This document shows positions 1-31,357 of a DNA stretch of 31,482 nt, piece after piece. The stretch spans positions 1-31,482 of IMG/VR virus record IMGVR_UViG_3300025608_000063; one strand, 5' to 3'. The notes under the pieces are model-generated. The model did not search any database, was not told the origin of the DNA, and worked only from the letters and a program-made list of their open reading frames with translations. Origin of the DNA: a virus (lineage: Duplodnaviria; Caudoviricetes). The number at the start of each line of letters is the position of its first letter. Position 1 is the first letter of the stretch. The translations under genes were made by a program, and so were the position numbers.

Positions 1-11
1 CAGGTAATAAA

Positions 12-137
12 ATGAAAATAATATATAAGATACTAAATAAATTAATTAACTTAATTGTTGAAATAATTATTATATTAGTATTTTGTATTATATTTACAAC
101 ATTAATAACAAGAATATTAAATTTAAATATCAATTAA
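12..137 (+). CDS. Possible 41-aa hydrophobic peptide
   Basis: MKIIYKILNKLINLIVEIIIILVFCIIFTTLITRILNLNIN; in the right copy (start 29495) its ATG overlaps the upstream stop (ATGA) and the stop position is kept; it also overlaps promoter-like sequence. Confidence 0.3.
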   Translation: MKIIYKILNKLINLIVEIIIILVFCIIFTTLITRILNLNIN

Positions 138-138
138 A

Positions 139-528
139 ATGAACAACAACAAATTAAAAGAACTTTATTTAAAGTACGAATTAGACAAAGAAGATTTCTT
201 TAAACACCAACACTACACAATCATAACAAGGCAAGGTATTGATAAAATACAAGCTAAAGAACAGATGTACGTTAGTTATGAAGTTATAAGATGTGAGCCT
301 AACTTTGCAGTATTTAAAGCAAAGGCACAAAAAGAGGGTAAGATGATAGAAACTTTTGGTTCTGCATTAAAAGGAGCAAACTACAAAGATGGGAATACTA
401 ATTCTTGGTATGTTGCTGAAATGGCAGAAAAAAGAGCAATGAGTAGAGCAGTATTAAAATTAACAGGGTTCTATGAATTGGGAGTTTTTGGAGAAGATGA
501 AAGCGAAAGTTTTAAGAAAGAAAAATAG
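139..528 (+). CDS. Putative single-strand annealing protein (Sak/Rad52/RecT-like), allele A
   Basis: AEMAEKRAMSRAVL...GEDE motif resembles phage SSAPs; lies directly before SSB and helicase. Confidence 0.55.
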   Translation: MNNNKLKELYLKYELDKEDFFKHQHYTIITRQGIDKIQAKEQMYVSYEVIRCEPNFAVFKAKAQKEGKMIETFGSALKGANYKDGNTNSWYVAEMAEKRAMSRAVLKLTGFYELGVFGEDESESFKKEK

Positions 529-540
529 AAATATAAATAA

Positions 541-571
541 TACACGAGGTATTGCGTGTAATGACAATACC
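541..571 (+). promoter_or_regulatory. Predicted H-type RNA pseudoknot in the SSB leader
   Basis: TACACG(541-546) pairs with CGTGTA(555-560) and GGTATTG(548-554) pairs with CAATACC(565-571), crossing; loop 1 is a single A. Confidence 0.65.
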
Positions 572-591
572 AAAATTAAATAATAATTATT

Positions 592-888
592 ATGAGTGCA
601 ATTATCAATTACAGTTTAAGAGTAGACAAATTACCAAAAGAAAAATTTGTAGCAGGAAAAGATGGAGCAGTTTATCTAAACCTAACAATGTCAGTAAATG
701 ACGAAACAAGATACGGAAATAATACTTCTGTTTATGTTTCACAAACTGCAGAAGAAAGAGAAGCTAAAAAAGCAAGAAACTATGTAGCTAATGGCAAAGT
801 AGTTTGGAACGATGGTAATATAGTAAATGCTGAAAAAGAAGTGAAAGAAGCAGTACAGGAAGAAGTAGTATCTGATTTACCATTTTAA
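592..888 (+). CDS. Putative ssDNA-binding protein, allele A
   Basis: Small beta-rich protein with acidic tail ending DLPF; occupies the same slot as the DUF3127-like SSB in the other repeat copy. Confidence 0.65.
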   Translation: MSAIINYSLRVDKLPKEKFVAGKDGAVYLNLTMSVNDETRYGNNTSVYVSQTAEEREAKKARNYVANGKVVWNDGNIVNAEKEVKEAVQEEVVSDLPF

Positions 889-894
889 ATTTAT

Positions 895-924
895 AGGGTA
901 GTGTAAAAGCTACCCTTTTTTTTT
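895..924 (+). terminator. Rho-independent terminator
   Basis: AGGGTAG-tgtaaaag-CTACCCT followed by a T run. Confidence 0.85.
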
Positions 925-973: not shown

Positions 974-1861
974 ATGACAATAGATATTTCAGAAGAAAAG
1001 ACCATAGAAAATATGGAAATGGAACTTATAGAAAAGGAGTGTAGTGTATCAACAGATGAAGTGTTAGACTACCCACCAACTGCTTTAAGTTTAGGAGAAA
1101 AGACAATACAAACAAAGGATGGAGATTTAAAAATACCAATAGCAATAGGAACTTATGGAAACTTTAGTTTTGTACAAGCACCACCAAAGACAAAGAAAAC
1201 ATTTTTTATAAGTTTATTAGCAAGTGTTTATTTAAGTGGAAGAAATAATTTTGGAGGTAAAATAAAAGGACATAGAGATGGTAGATGTTTAATACATTTT
1301 GATACAGAGCAAGGTCATTGGCACTCACAAAGGGTATTTAAAAGAGTAGAGGATATGGCAGGTATAAAAGATTTAGGATGCTATAAAACATATGCTTTAA
1401 GAACTATAAATTATAAAAACAGAGTTAAGTTTATAGAATATATTTTAGAACAAAATAAAGGTAATAATGGACTTGTAGTAATTGATGGGATAGCAGACTT
1501 GGTAAGTGATGTAAATAACCTTGAAGAAAGTAATTTATGCGTACAAAAGATTATGGAATTATCGGCTAAATACGATTGTCATATAATAACAGTTATACAT
1601 AGTAACTATGGTACAGATAAAGCGACAGGTCATTTAGGAAGTTTTTTATATAAGAAGTGTGAAACTGCAATAAGTTTAGAGCAAAATACAGTACATAAAG
1701 ATAATGTAACTGCAACCTGTAAAATAAGTAGAGGATATGCTTTTGACACGTTTAGCTTTAGTGTAAACAGATACGGTTTACCTTTTGTAGTAGGGGATAT
1801 ATATGACCCATTAGAAGATTTTAAAAAAAATCAACCAAATAATAAAGAAATACCATTTTAA
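974..1861 (+). CDS. AAA/RecA-like ATPase, probable replicative helicase, allele A
   Basis: Variant Walker A (APPKTKKT), HFDTEQ, Walker B VVIDG, VIH and GHLGS motifs. Confidence 0.8.
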   Translation: MTIDISEEKTIENMEMELIEKECSVSTDEVLDYPPTALSLGEKTIQTKDGDLKIPIAIGTYGNFSFVQAPPKTKKTFFISLLASVYLSGRNNFGGKIKGHRDGRCLIHFDTEQGHWHSQRVFKRVEDMAGIKDLGCYKTYALRTINYKNRVKFIEYILEQNKGNNGLVVIDGIADLVSDVNNLEESNLCVQKIMELSAKYDCHIITVIHSNYGTDKATGHLGSFLYKKCETAISLEQNTVHKDNVTATCKISRGYAFDTFSFSVNRYGLPFVVGDIYDPLEDFKKNQPNNKEIPF

Positions 1862-2691: not shown

Positions 2692-2832
2692 ATGAAACTC
2701 GGAGACTTTATAGAATTAATTACAACATACACAGGAATAAAATGGCTTGTAAAGAAATGGAGTAAACTTACAGGCAAAGATTGTGGGTGTGATGACAGAA
2801 AGAATAAACTTAACGATATTGAATTATGGTAG
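2692..2832 (+). CDS. 46-aa hypothetical protein with CGC motif
   Basis: Hand translated MKLGDFIELITTYTGIKWLVKKWSKLTGKDCGCDDRKNKLNDIELW; abuts both neighbours. Confidence 0.75.
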   Translation: MKLGDFIELITTYTGIKWLVKKWSKLTGKDCGCDDRKNKLNDIELW

Positions 2833-3566
2833 AATTATACAAAGGAGATTGTCTTAAGGTTATGAAAGGCATTAAAGATAATAGTATTGATGCTATAATA
2901 ACAGACCCCCCTTACGGCACTACTGCCTGCAAGTGGGATAGTGTTATTGATTTTGACTTAATGTGGGAACAGTTGAATAGAATTATAAAGCCTAATGGTG
3001 CTATTGTCTTATTTGGTAGTGAGCCTTTTAGTAGTGCTTTGAGAATGAGTAATATTAAGAATTACAGGTACGATATTATTTGGGATAAAATACGTGGGAG
3101 TAATTTTGCACTTGCTAACAAACAGCCACTAAAAACACACGAAAACATCTCCGTATTTTATAAAAAACTACCGACATATAATCCACAAATGACGGTTGGT
3201 GAACCATACGACAAAACAAAGTATAATGGAGTAAATGATACAAGTAACATAACAGGGCATAAAATAAAGAGGACAAGAAAGAAAAATAATGGTGAAAGGT
3301 TTCCTGTTTCAATTCAAAAAGTATCTATGAACTGGAAGAGGCAAGACCAGATACACCCAACACAAAAACCAATAGCTTTAATGGAGTACCTAATAAAGAC
3401 TTACACCAACGAAAATGAAACGGTTTTAGATTTCACAATGGGAAGTGGTTCTACTATGGTAGCTTGTCAAAACACTAAAAGAAACGGAATAGGAATTGAA
3501 ATGGATGAAAACTATTTTAATATAGCTAAAAAAAGAATTGAAGATAATAAATTAAAACTTTTTTAA
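2826..3566 (+). CDS. Orphan DNA N6-adenine/N4-cytosine methyltransferase (beta class)
   Basis: DPPY catalytic motif, HPTQKP, and VLDFTMGSGST SAM-binding motif in beta order. Confidence 0.95.
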   Translation: MVELYKGDCLKVMKGIKDNSIDAIITDPPYGTTACKWDSVIDFDLMWEQLNRIIKPNGAIVLFGSEPFSSALRMSNIKNYRYDIIWDKIRGSNFALANKQPLKTHENISVFYKKLPTYNPQMTVGEPYDKTKYNGVNDTSNITGHKIKRTRKKNNGERFPVSIQKVSMNWKRQDQIHPTQKPIALMEYLIKTYTNENETVLDFTMGSGSTMVACQNTKRNGIGIEMDENYFNIAKKRIEDNKLKLF

Positions 3567-7805: not shown

Positions 7806-9002
7806 ATGCAACTAATAAATATTCAAGAGGTTAAACCTAACGAAAACAATCCAAGATTTATAAAAGATTATAAATTTAAAAAACTTGTAAAATCAATTAA
7901 AGAGTTTCCTGAAATGCTAAAGTTAAGACCTATCGTAGTAAATAGCGATATGGTAGTGCTTGGTGGTAATATGCGTTTAAAAGCGTGTAAAGAAGCAGGA
8001 TTAAAAGAAGTTTATATACTAAAGGCAGATGACTTAACAGAACAACAACAAAGAGAATTTATAGTAAAAGACAATGTAGGTTTTGGAGAATGGGATTGGG
8101 ATGTATTAGGTAATGAATGGAACACGCAACAGTTAGAAGATTGGGGTTTAGAATTTATGCCATTTGAAGAAGAAGAAGTTTTAGAAGCTAAAGAAGATGA
8201 TTTTAACGAAGCACCACCTGAACAACCTAAAACAGTTTTAGGGGATTTATACGAGATAGGAGAGCACAGGTTACTTTGTGGAGATAGTACGGATAGCGAC
8301 CAAGTAGCAAAGCTAATGAATGGGAATAAAGCAGATATGGTGTTTACTGACCCACCTTACGGAGTTAGTTATACAGGAGGACACAACAAAAAACAAAGAG
8401 AGGGTATTAAAAGTGATGAATTTGAAAACGAAGAATTATCAAGTTTATTTGAAGATGCTATAAATAATGCTTGTATATTTTCAAAAGAAACATCTCCTTT
8501 TTATATTTGGTATGCAGGAGGTAAATCTAAAGAAACTTATTCAGGATTATCTAAAACACCAATTGAAGTTAGGGCAGTAATATGTTGGTATAAAGTAAAA
8601 AGTGGTTCGGGAGCGTTTATGTCACAATACATACCTAATTATGAACCTTGTATTTATGGTTTTAAAAGTGGTAATACTATAAAATGGTATGGACCAACAG
8701 ATGAAAAAACTGTTTGGGAGTTTCCTAAAGATAAGCAAAATGAATATCATTTAACTCAAAAACCTATATTAGTAGTAGAAAGGGCTCTAAAAAATAGTAG
8801 TAAGAACGATGATTTAATTTACGATAGTTTTTTAGGTGGTGGTTCTACAATGGTAGCATCGCACCAACTAAAAAGAAAATGTTACGGAATGGAATTAGAC
8901 CCTAAATATTGTGATGTAATTATAAAAAGAATGATTAAATTAGACCCTACATTAAAAGTAAAAAGAAATGGTGTTAACGTTAACAACGAATTTAAATTAT
9001 AA
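7806..9002 (+). CDS. ParB/Srx N-terminal domain fused to DNA methyltransferase
   Basis: NENNPR...RPIVV...GGNMRLKA (ParB-N); HRLLCGDS, DPPY, HLTQKP and DSFLGGGST (MTase). Confidence 0.93.
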   Translation: MQLINIQEVKPNENNPRFIKDYKFKKLVKSIKEFPEMLKLRPIVVNSDMVVLGGNMRLKACKEAGLKEVYILKADDLTEQQQREFIVKDNVGFGEWDWDVLGNEWNTQQLEDWGLEFMPFEEEEVLEAKEDDFNEAPPEQPKTVLGDLYEIGEHRLLCGDSTDSDQVAKLMNGNKADMVFTDPPYGVSYTGGHNKKQREGIKSDEFENEELSSLFEDAINNACIFSKETSPFYIWYAGGKSKETYSGLSKTPIEVRAVICWYKVKSGSGAFMSQYIPNYEPCIYGFKSGNTIKWYGPTDEKTVWEFPKDKQNEYHLTQKPILVVERALKNSSKNDDLIYDSFLGGGSTMVASHQLKRKCYGMELDPKYCDVIIKRMIKLDPTLKVKRNGVNVNNEFKL

Positions 9003-9005
9003 AAA

Positions 9006-9803
9006 ATGATAGAGAAAGTAAACCCACAACACCCTGATAAATTAGCAGACCGAATAGCAGGTGCATTGGTTGATTATGCTTACAGTATAAATGAAAATCC
9101 AAAGATTGCAGTAGAGGTTTTAATAGGACACGGATACTGCACTATTATATCTGAAACAACTGTTAAAACAAAAAAAGACATAGTAGATAATATCGTTAAA
9201 AGAATAGCAGGAAAATTAAAAGTTAATTACATAGAAGTACCACAAGATGTATTTTTAAATAGTAATCAATCAGAAAAAACAAAAGCAGGAGATAATGGTA
9301 TTTTTAAAGGAATACCTATTGATGATGAAGTTAAAGAACTTTCTAAAATATCAAGAAGTATATATAAAAAATATCCAACAGATGGAAAATATATATTAGA
9401 TAAAAAAGAAGGTAGGGTTATTATTTGCCAATCAAATGCAAAATCAAAAGAGTTAGAAGAATATATTGGTAATAAATATGATTTAATAGTAAACCCTTTA
9501 GGTTATTGGATAGGAGGTATTGATGTTGATAGTGGAGCAACTAATAGAAAATTAGGTTCTGATATGGGTAGAGCAGTAACAGGTGGAGGTTTACACGGAA
9601 AGGATTTATCAAAGGCAGATGTATCTGTAAATATTTACGCACATTTAAAAGCACAAAAAGAAAATAAAATAATAGATATTTGTTGTGCTATTGGAGATGA
9701 AAATGTAGATGGAAAAGATTATAGCGAAATAGTTGAAATATCAAGAGATTATATAAATTCAATCGGTGGATTTGAAAAATTTGCTGAATGGGGAATAGTT
9801 TAA
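9006..9803 (+). CDS. metK: S-adenosylmethionine synthetase, shortened phage form
   Basis: HPDK, AGDNG, DGK, VNPLG..IGG..DSGATNRKL and GGGLHGKDLSKAD are collinear with MAT motifs. Confidence 0.88.
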   Translation: MIEKVNPQHPDKLADRIAGALVDYAYSINENPKIAVEVLIGHGYCTIISETTVKTKKDIVDNIVKRIAGKLKVNYIEVPQDVFLNSNQSEKTKAGDNGIFKGIPIDDEVKELSKISRSIYKKYPTDGKYILDKKEGRVIICQSNAKSKELEEYIGNKYDLIVNPLGYWIGGIDVDSGATNRKLGSDMGRAVTGGGLHGKDLSKADVSVNIYAHLKAQKENKIIDICCAIGDENVDGKDYSEIVEISRDYINSIGGFEKFAEWGIV

Positions 9804-19758: not shown

Positions 19759-20349
19759 ATGAAACCAAGTGAAATGTTAGACCAAGTAAAAACTCTTTTA
19801 GGGGTTGAAGTAAAACTTGAGCAAATGAAATTAGAAAACGGAACTGTTTTAGAAGCAGATAAATTCGAGGCAGGAAACGAAATCTTTATCGTAACAGAAG
19901 ATGAGAAAGTAGCTTTACCTGTTGGAGAATACGTTTTAGAAGATGGTCAAACTTTAGTAATCGAAGAAGAGGGTATCATTAAAGAAATGAAATCTGAAAA
20001 CGAAGAAGCTGAAGAAGTAGAGGTAGAAGTAGAAGCAAAAGAAGAAGAAGAAATGGGTTATGCTACTAAAGAAGAACTTGCAGAGGTTAAATCAATGATT
20101 GAAGAAATAAAAGCAATGTTAGAGCCTAAAGAAGAAATAATCGAAGAACCAAAAGAAGAAAAACAAGAGTTATCTTCTGATGTTGTAAACGAAATTCCTG
20201 AAGAAGTAAAACAAGAATTATCTGAACCTGCTGCTGAACCAATTAACACAAACGCAGAAGTTTCTAAAACAGAAGTAAAATTTAATATAGCATCAAAAAG
20301 AAAGATGTCTACATTAGATAGAGTAATGAATAAAATAAATAAACTTTAA
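19759..20349 (+). CDS. Putative capsid scaffold protein
   Basis: Very Glu-rich with basic C-terminus; lies between protease and capsid genes. Confidence 0.65.
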   Translation: MKPSEMLDQVKTLLGVEVKLEQMKLENGTVLEADKFEAGNEIFIVTEDEKVALPVGEYVLEDGQTLVIEEEGIIKEMKSENEEAEEVEVEVEAKEEEEMGYATKEELAEVKSMIEEIKAMLEPKEEIIEEPKEEKQELSSDVVNEIPEEVKQELSEPAAEPINTNAEVSKTEVKFNIASKRKMSTLDRVMNKINKL

Positions 20350-20376
20350 TAAACAATAAATTAAAATTAAATAAAA

Positions 20377-21297
20377 ATGAGTGTATCTTTAACATCAACT
20401 TATGCAGGTGAATTTAGTGGTAAGTATATCGCAGCTGCATTATTATCTGCATCAACTTTAGATAGTGGTGCTATTTCAATTCTACCAAACGTAAAATTTA
20501 AATCTGTTATCCAAAAAGGAGCAACTGATGACATCGTAAAAGATGCATCTTGTGATTTTGTAACTAATCAAGGAACTTTAACTTTAACAGAAGCAGTATT
20601 ACAACCTGAAGAATTTCAAGTAAATTTAGAATTATGTAAGAAAGATTTACATAACTCTTGGGAAGCTGCTCAAATGGGTTATTCTGCATTTGATAATTTA
20701 GCACCATCTTTCGCTGAATTTGTAATTTCTCACGTTGCTGCTAAAGTAGCTGATAGAACAGAGAAAAACATTTGGAGTGGAGCAACTGCAACAAGTGGAC
20801 AATTCGATGGGTTTACTGCAAAGTTAACTGCTGATAGTGATGTAATTGATGTAGCTGCTGCAACTGTAACTTCTGCTAACGTAATCGCTGAATTAGGTAA
20901 AGTAGTAGATGCTATTCCAACTGCAGTTTACGGACAAGAAGATTTAACTTTATATGTTTCTTCAAATGTAGCAAGAGCATACATTAGAGCATTAGGAGGT
21001 TTCGCTGCAACTATCGGTGCAAATGGTTCTGATAACAAAGGAACTCAATGGTACAATGGTGGAGAGTTATCTTTCGATGGTATCAACATTTTTGTTGCTA
21101 AAGGATTAGCAGATGACACTATGATTGCTGCACAAAAATCAAACTTATATTTCGGAACAGGTATCTTAAACGACCAAAACGAAGTGAAAGTAATTGATAT
21201 GTCAGACATCGATGGTTCACAAAATGTAAGAGTAATAATGAGATTTACTGCAGGGGTACAACACGTATTCGGTGGAGATATCGTTCTTTATTCATAG
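20377..21297 (+). CDS. Major capsid protein
   Basis: 306 aa, strongly biased codons, follows protease and scaffold, followed by a terminator. Confidence 0.8.
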   Translation: MSVSLTSTYAGEFSGKYIAAALLSASTLDSGAISILPNVKFKSVIQKGATDDIVKDASCDFVTNQGTLTLTEAVLQPEEFQVNLELCKKDLHNSWEAAQMGYSAFDNLAPSFAEFVISHVAAKVADRTEKNIWSGATATSGQFDGFTAKLTADSDVIDVAAATVTSANVIAELGKVVDAIPTAVYGQEDLTLYVSSNVARAYIRALGGFAATIGANGSDNKGTQWYNGGELSFDGINIFVAKGLADDTMIAAQKSNLYFGTGILNDQNEVKVIDMSDIDGSQNVRVIMRFTAGVQHVFGGDIVLYS

Positions 21298-29310: not shown

Positions 29311-29498
29311 ATAAAGCAGAATTAATAAACAAAATTACTTTGTTAGATACATCTATTTATAGAAAAATTGGTTTTTTAAAAAGTGGTGTATATTTACACG
29401 AACCATTAATGTATCGAAAAAAACTTTATGAAGTTTATGAAAAATTAGACATAGAAACTTTAACTAAATTATTAGAATTAAAACAGGTAATAAAATGA
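29307..29498 (+). CDS. Hypothetical protein
   Basis: ORF track, 63 aa. Confidence 0.65.
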   Translation: MNKAELINKITLLDTSIYRKIGFLKSGVYLHEPLMYRKKLYEVYEKLDIETLTKLLELKQVIK

Positions 29499-29621
29499 AA
29501 ATAATATATAAGATACTAAATAAATTAATTAACTTAATTGTTGAAATAATTATTATATTAGTATTTTGTATTATATTTACAACATTAATAACAAGAATAT
29601 TAAATTTAAAAATTAATTAAA

Positions 29622-30008
29622 ATGAACAACAACAAATTAAAAGAACTTTATTTAAAGTACGAATTAGACAAAGAAGATTTCTTTAAACACCAACATTACA
29701 CTATTATTACAAGACAAGGTATTGATAAGATACAGGCTAAAGAACAGATGTACGTTAGTTATGAAGTAATAAGATGCGAACCTAACTTTGCAGTATTTAA
29801 AGCTAAAGCACAAAAAGAGGGTAAGATGATAGAAACATTTGGCTCTGCATTAAAAGGAGAGGGTTACAAAGATGGTAATACTAATTCTTGGTATGTAGCT
29901 GAAATGGCAGAGAAAAGAGCAATGAGTAGAGCAGTTTTAAAATTAACAGGTTTCTACGAGTTAGGAGTATTTGGTGAGGATGAAAGCGAAAGTTTTAAAA
30001 AGAAATAA
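29622..30008 (+). CDS. Putative single-strand annealing protein, allele B
   Basis: Protein identical to 139..528 except GANY/GEGY and the C-terminal end; many synonymous changes. Confidence 0.55.
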   Translation: MNNNKLKELYLKYELDKEDFFKHQHYTIITRQGIDKIQAKEQMYVSYEVIRCEPNFAVFKAKAQKEGKMIETFGSALKGEGYKDGNTNSWYVAEMAEKRAMSRAVLKLTGFYELGVFGEDESESFKKK

Positions 30009-30043
30009 TTAAGTATATTAACCTAAATTAAAATAGAAATATT

Positions 30044-30379
30044 ATGAGTTTACAATTAACAGGAAAAATTAAATTAATCGGAGAAAAACAAACCTTTGAT
30101 AGTGGTTTTCAAAAAGTAGAATTTGTTATTACAACAAACGATAAATACCCACAAGATGTAAAATTTGAAATAGTACAAGATAAAGTAGATGATTTTATAA
30201 AATATAATAAAGTTGGTACTGATGTAGATGTTTCATTTAACGTTAGAGGTAATGAGTATCAAGGTAAATATTATGTAAGTTTATCTGCTTGGAAAGTTTT
30301 TAAATCTGATGCTAATGCACCTGCTACTGATATAGGAGTGCCGACAGAAGAATTAGAAACAACTGATTTACCATTTTAA
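30044..30379 (+). CDS. DUF3127-like OB-fold SSB, allele B
   Basis: F.K.EFVI...YPQ...V.VSFNVRGNEYQGKYY.SL.AWK plus acidic tail ending DLPF. Confidence 0.8.
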   Translation: MSLQLTGKIKLIGEKQTFDSGFQKVEFVITTNDKYPQDVKFEIVQDKVDDFIKYNKVGTDVDVSFNVRGNEYQGKYYVSLSAWKVFKSDANAPATDIGVPTEELETTDLPF

Positions 30380-30457: not shown

Positions 30458-31357
30458 ATGACAGAACAAGAATTACAAGAAAATAACGACCATTTAATGT
30501 TTATGCAATCAATTGAGGAAGATTGTAAAGTAGATATTAATAAAAAAATAGAACACCCACCTGTGGCAATTAGTTTTAAAACAAAACAGGTAGTATTAAA
30601 AAATGGAGAAACAAAAGAATTCCCAATCCCTATCGGAACTTATGGAAATTTTAGTTTTATACAAGCACCACCTAAATCAATGAAAACTTTTTTTTGCAGT
30701 TTATTAGGTAGTGCATATACAAACTCAAATGGTGCATATACTAAAGGTATGTGTTCTTTTAGAGATGGTAAGGAATTTATACATATAGATACCGAACAAG
30801 GTATATGGCACTCTCAAAGAGTATTTAAACGTATTCAATGGATGAATAAAGGTTTTGATTTAGGTTTTTATCACACCTTTGCTTTAAGGCAAATCAATTA
30901 TAATTCAAGGATTGATTTTATAGAATATTATTTAGAGGGTTTAAAAGAAGATGGCAAAGAAGTAGGATTGGTTATTTTAGATGGTGTAGCTGATTTAGTT
31001 AGTGATGCAAATAATTTAGAGGAAAGTTCTGCAGTTGTTCAAAAAATAATGCAATGGACAAGTCTTTATAATTGCCATATAGTTACAGTAATTCATAGTA
31101 ATTTTGGTAGTGATAAGCCAACAGGACATTTAGGAAGTTTTCTTGAGAAAAAAGCAGAAACACAAATACAATTAGAAAAAGACCCAAATAAATTAGGTTG
31201 TATAACAGTTACTTGTAAAAGAAGTAGAAATACACCTTTTGAACAATTCGATTTTAAATTAGATAATTCAGGGTTACCATACATAATAAATGATACAGAT
31301 AACTCTTTAAATTACAATAAAGAATATACTTTTAAAAATAAAGAAATACCTTTTTAA
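30458..31357 (+). CDS. AAA/RecA-like helicase, allele B
   Basis: APPKSMKT, HIDTEQ, ILDG, VIH and GHLGS; divergent homolog of 974..1861. Confidence 0.8.
   Translation: MTEQELQENNDHLMFMQSIEEDCKVDINKKIEHPPVAISFKTKQVVLKNGETKEFPIPIGTYGNFSFIQAPPKSMKTFFCSLLGSAYTNSNGAYTKGMCSFRDGKEFIHIDTEQGIWHSQRVFKRIQWMNKGFDLGFYHTFALRQINYNSRIDFIEYYLEGLKEDGKEVGLVILDGVADLVSDANNLEESSAVVQKIMQWTSLYNCHIVTVIHSNFGSDKPTGHLGSFLEKKAETQIQLEKDPNKLGCITVTCKRSRNTPFEQFDFKLDNSGLPYIINDTDNSLNYNKEYTFKNKEIPF

Follow-up and report, generated by a model that had tools for sequence, protein, structure and literature searches.

Positions 541 to 571 of the window (the whole stretch of 31,482 nt that was analysed) hold a real, covarying, and optional leader pseudoknot, the fold of which is predicted from the sequences of the window and its relatives. 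It is situated upstream of 592..888, a likely gene for a single-stranded-DNA-binding (SSB) protein, and we read it as a swappable leader module that would be exchanged by recombination at a hotspot of methylase/nuclease-like cassettes. The features of the locus are as follows.

139..528, + strand: 129-aa ORF, no Pfam match, in the slot of Rad52-like or ERF genes in relatives
541..571, + strand: predicted H-type (CPK-1) RNA pseudoknot, read from the sequence and from covariation in relatives
572..591, + strand: A/U-only spacer and translation initiation region, 20 nt with one UUAAA, from the sequence
592..888, + strand: likely SSB-like gene, 98 aa, from context and acidic tail
895..924, + strand: terminator-like hairpin with T run closing the SSB-like gene, found by eye
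974..1861, + strand: AAA_25 protein gene, swapped jointly with the SSB allele
29484..30005, + strand: copy of window positions 1-523, 93.7% identical, from comparison
30009..30043, + strand: leader of the alternative allele, unstructured, from folding and comparison
30044..30379, + strand: alternative allele DUF3127/phrog_4932 (annotated as single-strand DNA binding protein), from Pfam and PHROGs

Sequence and Predicted Fold of the Pseudoknot

An earlier note on this DNA had claimed two perfect crossing stems, TACACG/CGTGTA and GGTATTG/CAATACC, with a single nucleotide in loop 1 and no loop 2, and direct reading of the sequence confirms all of these elements. Stem 1 (S1) is formed by 541-546 and 555-560 (6 bp), stem 2 (S2) by 548-554 and 565-571 (7 bp), loop 1 consists of A547, and loop 2 has a length of zero. 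Loop 3, for which 4-5 nt had been given, is present and measures 4 nt (561-564). The 3' end of the pseudoknot is located 20 nt upstream of the ATG at 592. In T4's own gene 32 pseudoknot, loop 1 is exactly 1 nt and stem 2 exactly 7 bp long. With an S2 of 7 bp, a loop 1 of 1 nt, and a loop 2 of 0 nt, the element falls into the CPK-1 class, in which S2 spans 6-7 bp, loop 1 measures 1-2 nt, and the stems adjoin directly; the gene 32 pseudoknot of T2 and T6 is a prototype of this class according to PMC3988561 and PMC11262651.

A strict pattern (6 + 7 Watson-Crick base pairs, loop 1 of 1 nt, loop 2 of 0 nt) has its sole match in the whole window, both strands included, at 541-571. Dinucleotide shuffling of the complete window likewise produced one strict knot in 3 of 40 trials, so that the window alone is suggestive and not decisive, and support comes from the relatives. 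Terminator hairpins preceding other genes come up in strict scans as well (22/192, 4/92, 8/176, and 1/130 leaders), so that a match of this kind alone is no proof. The CPK-1 geometry suits the + strand only; a knot on the minus strand was rejected on geometry, since by established stereochemistry it would need a 1-nt minor-groove loop. With a looser knot score, four other leaders of the window also reach at least 28, and these are likely hairpin or A/T-run artefacts.

No Rfam match was obtained over 541-591 at E<=10, nor for the element in four related loci at E<=5. Searching with a covariance model built on it yielded no further copy in the window, including the leaders of the capsid and other abundant genes, or in 88 other loci, and did not recover a second knot described below. 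ViennaRNA, which considers nested structures only, returns as its minimum an extended hairpin made up of S2 and three inner pairs, and the z value of whole-leader folding, likewise for nested structures, is only -0.54. As the conserved fold, this extended hairpin was rejected because pairing is lost without compensation at its inner positions, in 4 and in 10 of the 19 variants; it might compete kinetically with the pseudoknot. A terminator reading of the element was discarded as well, the hairpin being followed by no U run on either strand.

Conservation and Covariation of Both Stems

Relatives were scanned with patterns in which one stem was constrained and the other left free. When S2 was left free, it was retained in all 60 viral matches listed, among which A551-U568 is replaced by G-C in 16 and single changes of the G-U type occur in 5. 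When S1 was left free, a lineage (L235, L294) was found in which the three inner S1 pairs are all exchanged. The metagenome scan with S1 left free gave at least 120 matches, or 119 after removal of the window itself (L426). Among these 119 listed matches, 92 precede members of the 592..888 family, 4 a ParB-like or methylase-cassette gene, and 1 another gene, and 2 are cut; S1 has at least 4 bp in all 99 non-chance matches, including 92 of 92 linked to the family, and in 1 of the 20 chance-type matches. In the corresponding viral scan, which overlaps with the metagenome set and like it contains many near-copies, 66 of 73 matches precede the family, with an S1 of at least 4 bp in 66 of 66 and in none of the other 7.

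For 19 distinct variants, 92.7% of the cells are paired (S2 100%, S1 84%); slid controls reach 23-62%. S2 shows an exchange of A-U for G-C in 7 variants, which amounts to one compensatory pair, and three changes of the G-U type, all one-sided changes being G-U-compatible on the + strand. S1 contributes four pairs changed on both sides, giving five such pairs in total for S1 and S2. Its outer pair (541-560) is open in 15 of the 19 variants, and 4 variants have an S1 that is cut to 4 bp or mismatched; judged from these alignments, the conserved part of stem 1 is 4-5 bp. Two of five covariation measures do not rise above shuffles (both-side-changed pairs, 118/500; further pair types, 310/500). 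Few independent lineages stand behind the covariation, and the changes in S1 come mainly from one lineage and could represent a single event. The check suggested in the earlier note, covariation of both stems in leaders of homologs, thus turned up compensatory changes in S1 (4 pairs) as well as in S2 (1 pair). Conservation among homolog leaders holds in part: both stems are kept where the knot occurs, but most homolog leaders are devoid of it.

Position Relative to the Start Codon and the Upstream Gene

The 20-nt A/T stretch that had been claimed before the ATG at 592 is present, as 572-591 contains neither G nor C. Its interpretation as a sign of an operator has to be abandoned, since this composition is ordinary here: 12 of 39 starts in the window, the DUF3127 start among them, have at most one G or C in positions -20 to -1. 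Such A/U richness is expected because initiation in Bacteroidetes does not use Shine-Dalgarno (SD) sequences, as stated in PMC6847099.

The spacer between knot and ATG is 18-22 nt in all 96 distinct loci, within a search window of 15-25 nt. In 57 of these 96 loci, S1 begins 0-1 nt past the stop codon of the upstream gene, with many unrelated upstream genes involved; in the window, this stop lies 12 nt before S1. The upstream frame reads through the knot in 7 loci, and in 17 the nearest long ORF ends more than 100 nt away. A slippery-type heptamer occurs in 23 of the 96 loci. Since the phase from upstream stop to ATG varies (15/40/41 over the 96 loci), conserved recoding by frameshift or readthrough is ruled out, and an N-terminal extension was rejected on the same ground.

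The Locus and Its Two Alleles

The window is likely a phage genome of marine Flavobacteriia, as suggested by its sequence relationships: homologs were identified in phages of Flavobacterium and Polaribacter and mostly in Bacteroidota bins. Both ends of the contig (1-2000 and 29484-31482) represent versions of one locus, and their divergence begins at the small gene and the adjacent AAA_25 gene, the product of 974..1861 being 51% identical to that of the copy at 30458. Probably, the two versions are population variants that were joined in a circular assembly. By its slot, 139..528 would encode an annealing protein. Its family is abundant (4969 matches) and without Pfam match; it is a candidate small annealing protein.

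In RNA libraries, one contig (X1) matches 253-853 exactly, and further portions of the phage occur in three runs; strand, level, and ends are not evident from contigs of such libraries, which may also include DNA. No weight was given to a gap of the RNA contigs over the DUF3127 allele or to one contig starting at 551. In the contigs of two RNA runs, 278 nt (20247-20526) are skipped between a scaffold-like and a capsid-like gene; the short side measures 26 nt, and the skip may derive from a related phage. Elsewhere in the window, the ORFs at 2826-3566, 7806-9002, and 9006-9803 resemble DNA methylases and a SAM-synthetase-like gene by their motifs.

The Protein Encoded by 592..888

The 98-aa product of 592..888 contains neither Cys nor His. 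It has no Pfam match, a weak PHROGs match to phrog_24909 (function unknown), and 650 relatives at E<=0.001 among cluster representatives (50% clustering). [quoted passage not shown] The homologs are neighboured by ERF, Rad52-like, exonuclease, and AAA_25 genes, i.e., by a recombination/replication module, and the gene swaps with the PHROGs SSB family phrog_4932. The protein carries an acidic tail that ends in DLPF in the window, in D/E-x-PF in 72 of 132 homologs, and in F or W in 33 more; a profile comparison with DUF3127 aligned this tail alone. Pfam SSB is matched at E<=0.01 by only 3 of 124 family members, and one homolog of 58% identity exceeds its cut-off (27.6 vs 26 bits). A match to gp32 was found in neither Pfam nor PHROGs, with the protein or with its 124-member alignment. 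The call of the earlier note therefore stands on context, tail, and the weak family link to Pfam SSB. The knot, which had been adduced as additional support, gives it none because CPK-1 is a generic fold that also serves frameshifting, as described in PMC3988561.

The structure model (pLDDT 83.6) is confident and beta-rich for residues 1-76 and of low pLDDT past residue 80. Foldseek returned no structure match at E<=0.001, the best Z of a VIA structure search was 2.4, and a sequence search of the PDB gave only weak eL22 matches; matches in BFVD are unnamed phage proteins and those in the ESM Atlas unnamed clusters. Absent structure matches do not show a new fold. The family is a large phage family with a confident model and no matched solved fold. 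A single-sequence model of DUF3127 was of low confidence and was left out.

Distribution of the Knot among Homologs

From the lack of the knot at the DUF3127 allele, the earlier note had concluded that the RNA element travels with the gene. The leader at 30009-30043 indeed contains no such structure, and none of 75 leaders of DUF3127 homologs has a comparable knot, but the conclusion does not hold. Among the 80 closest homologs listed (75-96% identical), the knot is absent from 77 and present in 3, and 25 of the 80 are preceded by the leader of the DUF3127 allele with at most 3 mismatches over 33 nt, one of them exactly. In a second homolog set it occurs in 7 of 78 and is absent from 71; a genome collection with 7 loci gave none in 6 usable leaders, and 71 of 74 leaders of a distant set (best 80 of 520 loci) are without a knot. 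In case of 5 of the 119 listed metagenome matches, the knot leads unrelated genes. On a protein tree of 68 rows, built from a short alignment and with bootstrap not settled, the knot needs about 5 gains or losses, 3 of which are forced by well-supported branches, and the lineage of the window is nested in a knot-less clade. Since most homologs have no detectable knot, it is dispensable.

Of 42 loci with the knot, 19 have a methylase/nuclease-like cassette directly upstream; for loci without the knot, the counts are 0 of 59 and 6 of 60. These hypervariable cassettes consist of an N6_N4 or MT-A70 methylase gene with a shared N-terminal domain, followed by a variable ORF that is probably nuclease-like, only one of these ORFs having a Pfam match. 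They are inserted behind the annealing-type gene, ahead of the SSB-like gene, and were seen upstream of the element in L522-L594. One nuclease-like gene together with the knot precedes three different SSB clades. In three contigs (L410/L411, L444/L443, and L516/L515), two copies of the element flank inserts of 1.4-1.8 kb; in most cassettes, the element is confined to the right side. The two-copy contigs presumably arose from crossovers in the A/T-rich start regions.

A Second Knot and Other Leader Motifs of Distant Homologs

The best 80 of 520 confirmed loci with distant homologs gave 74 distinct leaders, 3 of which (L742, L743, and L757, at 751-782) contain a second CPK-1-type knot of different sequence 19 nt before the ATG. 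It has an S1 of 5 bp and either a loop 1 of 1 nt with an S2 of 8 bp or a loop 1 of 2 nt with an S2 of 7 bp, follows directly after the upstream stop, and contains an in-frame ATG; an ERF gene precedes these homologs. Controls with reverse complements (0/74) and shuffles (0/740) were negative. One compensatory and one G-U change were observed, which is not significant with 3 sequences (147/500), and the knot is single-copy in 3 of the 5 records searched. It may have diverged from the first knot or have been invented separately. A repeat of the strict scan gave lower counts for the family (1/47, 5/59, and 0/74), the start site being shifted by the in-frame ATG in case of the second knot; we presume that the lower counts elsewhere are due to the same kind of shift, and the higher counts are those used here. 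Both CPK-1 knots occur almost only before the 592..888 gene family and, terminal repeats and cassette duplications aside, with one copy per record in the scans.

A motif similar to DUF805b (RF02914) leads two further homologs with 32-34 bits, below the cut-off of 35.6. Sites of this motif are L598:449-481, L597:227-259, and L319:2447-2479, with L737 and L744 added by eye, and phage elemoE gives a weak match. In L319, it is preceded by what we take to be a promoter-like sequence of the Bacteroidetes type. Just past the SSB-like gene of one clade (L036-L076 and L387-L398), the loop of the terminator could pair over 7 bp with the sequence behind the T run, which would again give a CPK-1 shape, with the next gene beginning about 22 nt further on. 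The copies are near-identical, no covariation was seen, and this shape may be due to chance.

Possible Functions of the Element

Read from sequence were pairing potential, conservation by compensatory and G-U changes, a fixed offset to the start, and a patchy, recombination-like distribution; we infer that the knot folds in the cell and that the protein functions as an SSB, binds the RNA, and represses. Among the functions considered, we prefer a putative convergent autorepression operator of the T4 gene 32 type, since two knot families are almost confined to this one gene family at a fixed offset, and give it nearly even chances. The knot would be the nucleation site at which surplus 592..888 protein loads; the loaded protein would spread over the 20-nt A/U initiation region and thereby block ribosomes, and single-stranded DNA would draw the protein off and lift the block. 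For T4 gp32, knot-nucleated binding with subsequent coverage of the initiation region is described as demonstrated repression in PMC535899 and PMC3014915.

The knot lies near the edge of the 30S footprint with a spacer about half as long as that of T4, and an enhancer is therefore suited equally well. The main alternative, though rather unlikely, is an expression element that raises SSB output independently of the protein, either as a standby site for bS1/30S just outside the initiation footprint or as an mRNA stabiliser, i.e., a barrier protecting the processed mRNA after cleavage in an upstream A/U-rich region. The fixed offset of 18-22 nt is in agreement with it, as are the similarly placed DUF805b-like motifs of other homologs. 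In Bacteroidetes, which lack SD sequences, bS1 has been proposed to read A-rich nucleotides at -12 to -15 (PMC6847099), and according to PMC10931766 it binds pseudoknots with high affinity. Such an element would act before any gene, which matches the 5 metagenome matches leading other genes, but both CPK-1 knots keep almost exclusively to one gene family, are not found before the capsid or abundant genes of the window, and occur with one copy per record apart from terminal repeats and cassette duplications.

An improbable third explanation is a coupling or insulating device, in which the knot would be opened by ribosomes terminating upstream or would protect SSB expression from whatever cassette has been inserted. 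S1 directly behind the upstream stop in 57 of 96 loci, with many unrelated upstream genes, and the cassette counts (19 of 42 loci with the knot; 0 of 59 and 6 of 60 loci without it) would fit, but the start region is not sequestered by the knot, the stop of the window is 12 nt away, 7 loci read through the knot, and in 17 the distance exceeds 100 nt. Moreover, clade is a confounder of the link to cassettes, and stops arise by chance in A/T-rich DNA.

Still less credible is a feature of the DNA itself, i.e., a cassette boundary or recombination site that acts as single-stranded DNA and is kept as homology for gene swaps. The paired copies around 1.4-1.8 kb inserts in three contigs, the occurrence of one nuclease-like gene plus knot before three SSB clades, the near-invariant sequence, and the precedent of STAXI, pseudoknot motifs near SSB and integrase genes (PMC2864571), speak in favour of it. 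Yet the one-sided changes of S2 are all G-U-compatible on the + strand, a 1-nt loop across 7 bp suits A-form RNA, and most cassettes have the element on the right only, duplicates being explicable by the presumed crossovers in start regions. A neutral passenger, namely a chance pairing spread through recent recombination, is very improbable: 3 of 40 shuffles holding a strict knot, a folding z of only -0.54 for nested structures, and few independent lineages are outweighed by the compensatory changes of S1 and S2 and by the second knot family, which has the same offset.

Returning to autorepression, it is tempting to speculate, although we regard it as doubtful, that small, widespread phage SSBs with no relation to gp32 and no matched solved fold repeatedly recruited compact pseudoknots (two CPK-1 families, perhaps the DUF805b-like motif) as plug-in autorepression modules at an offset of 18-22 nt, and that these move with methylase/nuclease cassettes as segG moves T4 gene 32. 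If so, the ssDNA-sensing feedback loop of T4 would have been invented independently in the SD-less translation of Bacteroidota.

Comparison with Known Systems

Stem and loop shape are common to the window element and the CPK-1 family, which is a structural class and does not define a function. The element is no recoding signal, since its frame relative to the upstream gene is not conserved. That structured RNAs precede phage SSB-type genes is known from PMC10690425, which reports among IMG/VR candidates 12 before gp32 and one, DNAVirus_7276, before DUF3127 in gut Bacteroides phages. Like the element, these candidates covary and are located within 25 nt of phage SSB-type genes, but they belong to other gene families and hosts. 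DUF805b (RF02914) and STAXI (PMC2864571) are similar as small motifs in intergenic regions of phages and mobile elements, and STAXI forms a pseudoknot in the vicinity of SSB genes; in Rfam, neither of them is matched by the window element, and STAXI is described as tandemly repeated (PMC2864571). A description of the motif was not found in Rfam or in the literature searched; the supplements of PMC10690425 and PMC5737381 may list it.

The closest parallel is the gene 32 operator of T4, T2, and RB69, in which, likewise, the leader of an ssDNA-binding-type gene contains a compact pseudoknot (about 28-31 nt) that is placed 5' of an A/U region without structure. Both knots are missing in some relatives (RB49 in case of T4), and a mobile nuclease gene may abut or overlap the knot (segG in case of T4), as described in PMC535899. 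In contrast, the 98-aa protein of the window is not a zinc SSB of the gp32 family and lacks Cys and His; the spacer is 18-22 nt with one UUAAA, whereas that of T4 exceeds 40 nt with several UUAAA/UAAA repeats (PMC535899); there is no SD, and the leader is exchanged among SSB clades and in some cases precedes other genes. The window element at best works like the T4 gene 32 operator without being a member of its family. A review of 2010 (PMC3014915) considered the gene 32 knot as perhaps the only viral pseudoknot known for translational autoregulation, and PMC535899 names as an open question by what means an SSB recognises its own mRNA among single strands. A 31-nt knot with a 98-aa protein, together with natural alleles with and without the knot before proteins of 85-95% identity, would be a minimal system in which this question of mRNA recognition becomes testable. 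Should the element act as an enhancer or stabiliser instead, it would still be a compact, covarying leader element for SD-less translation.
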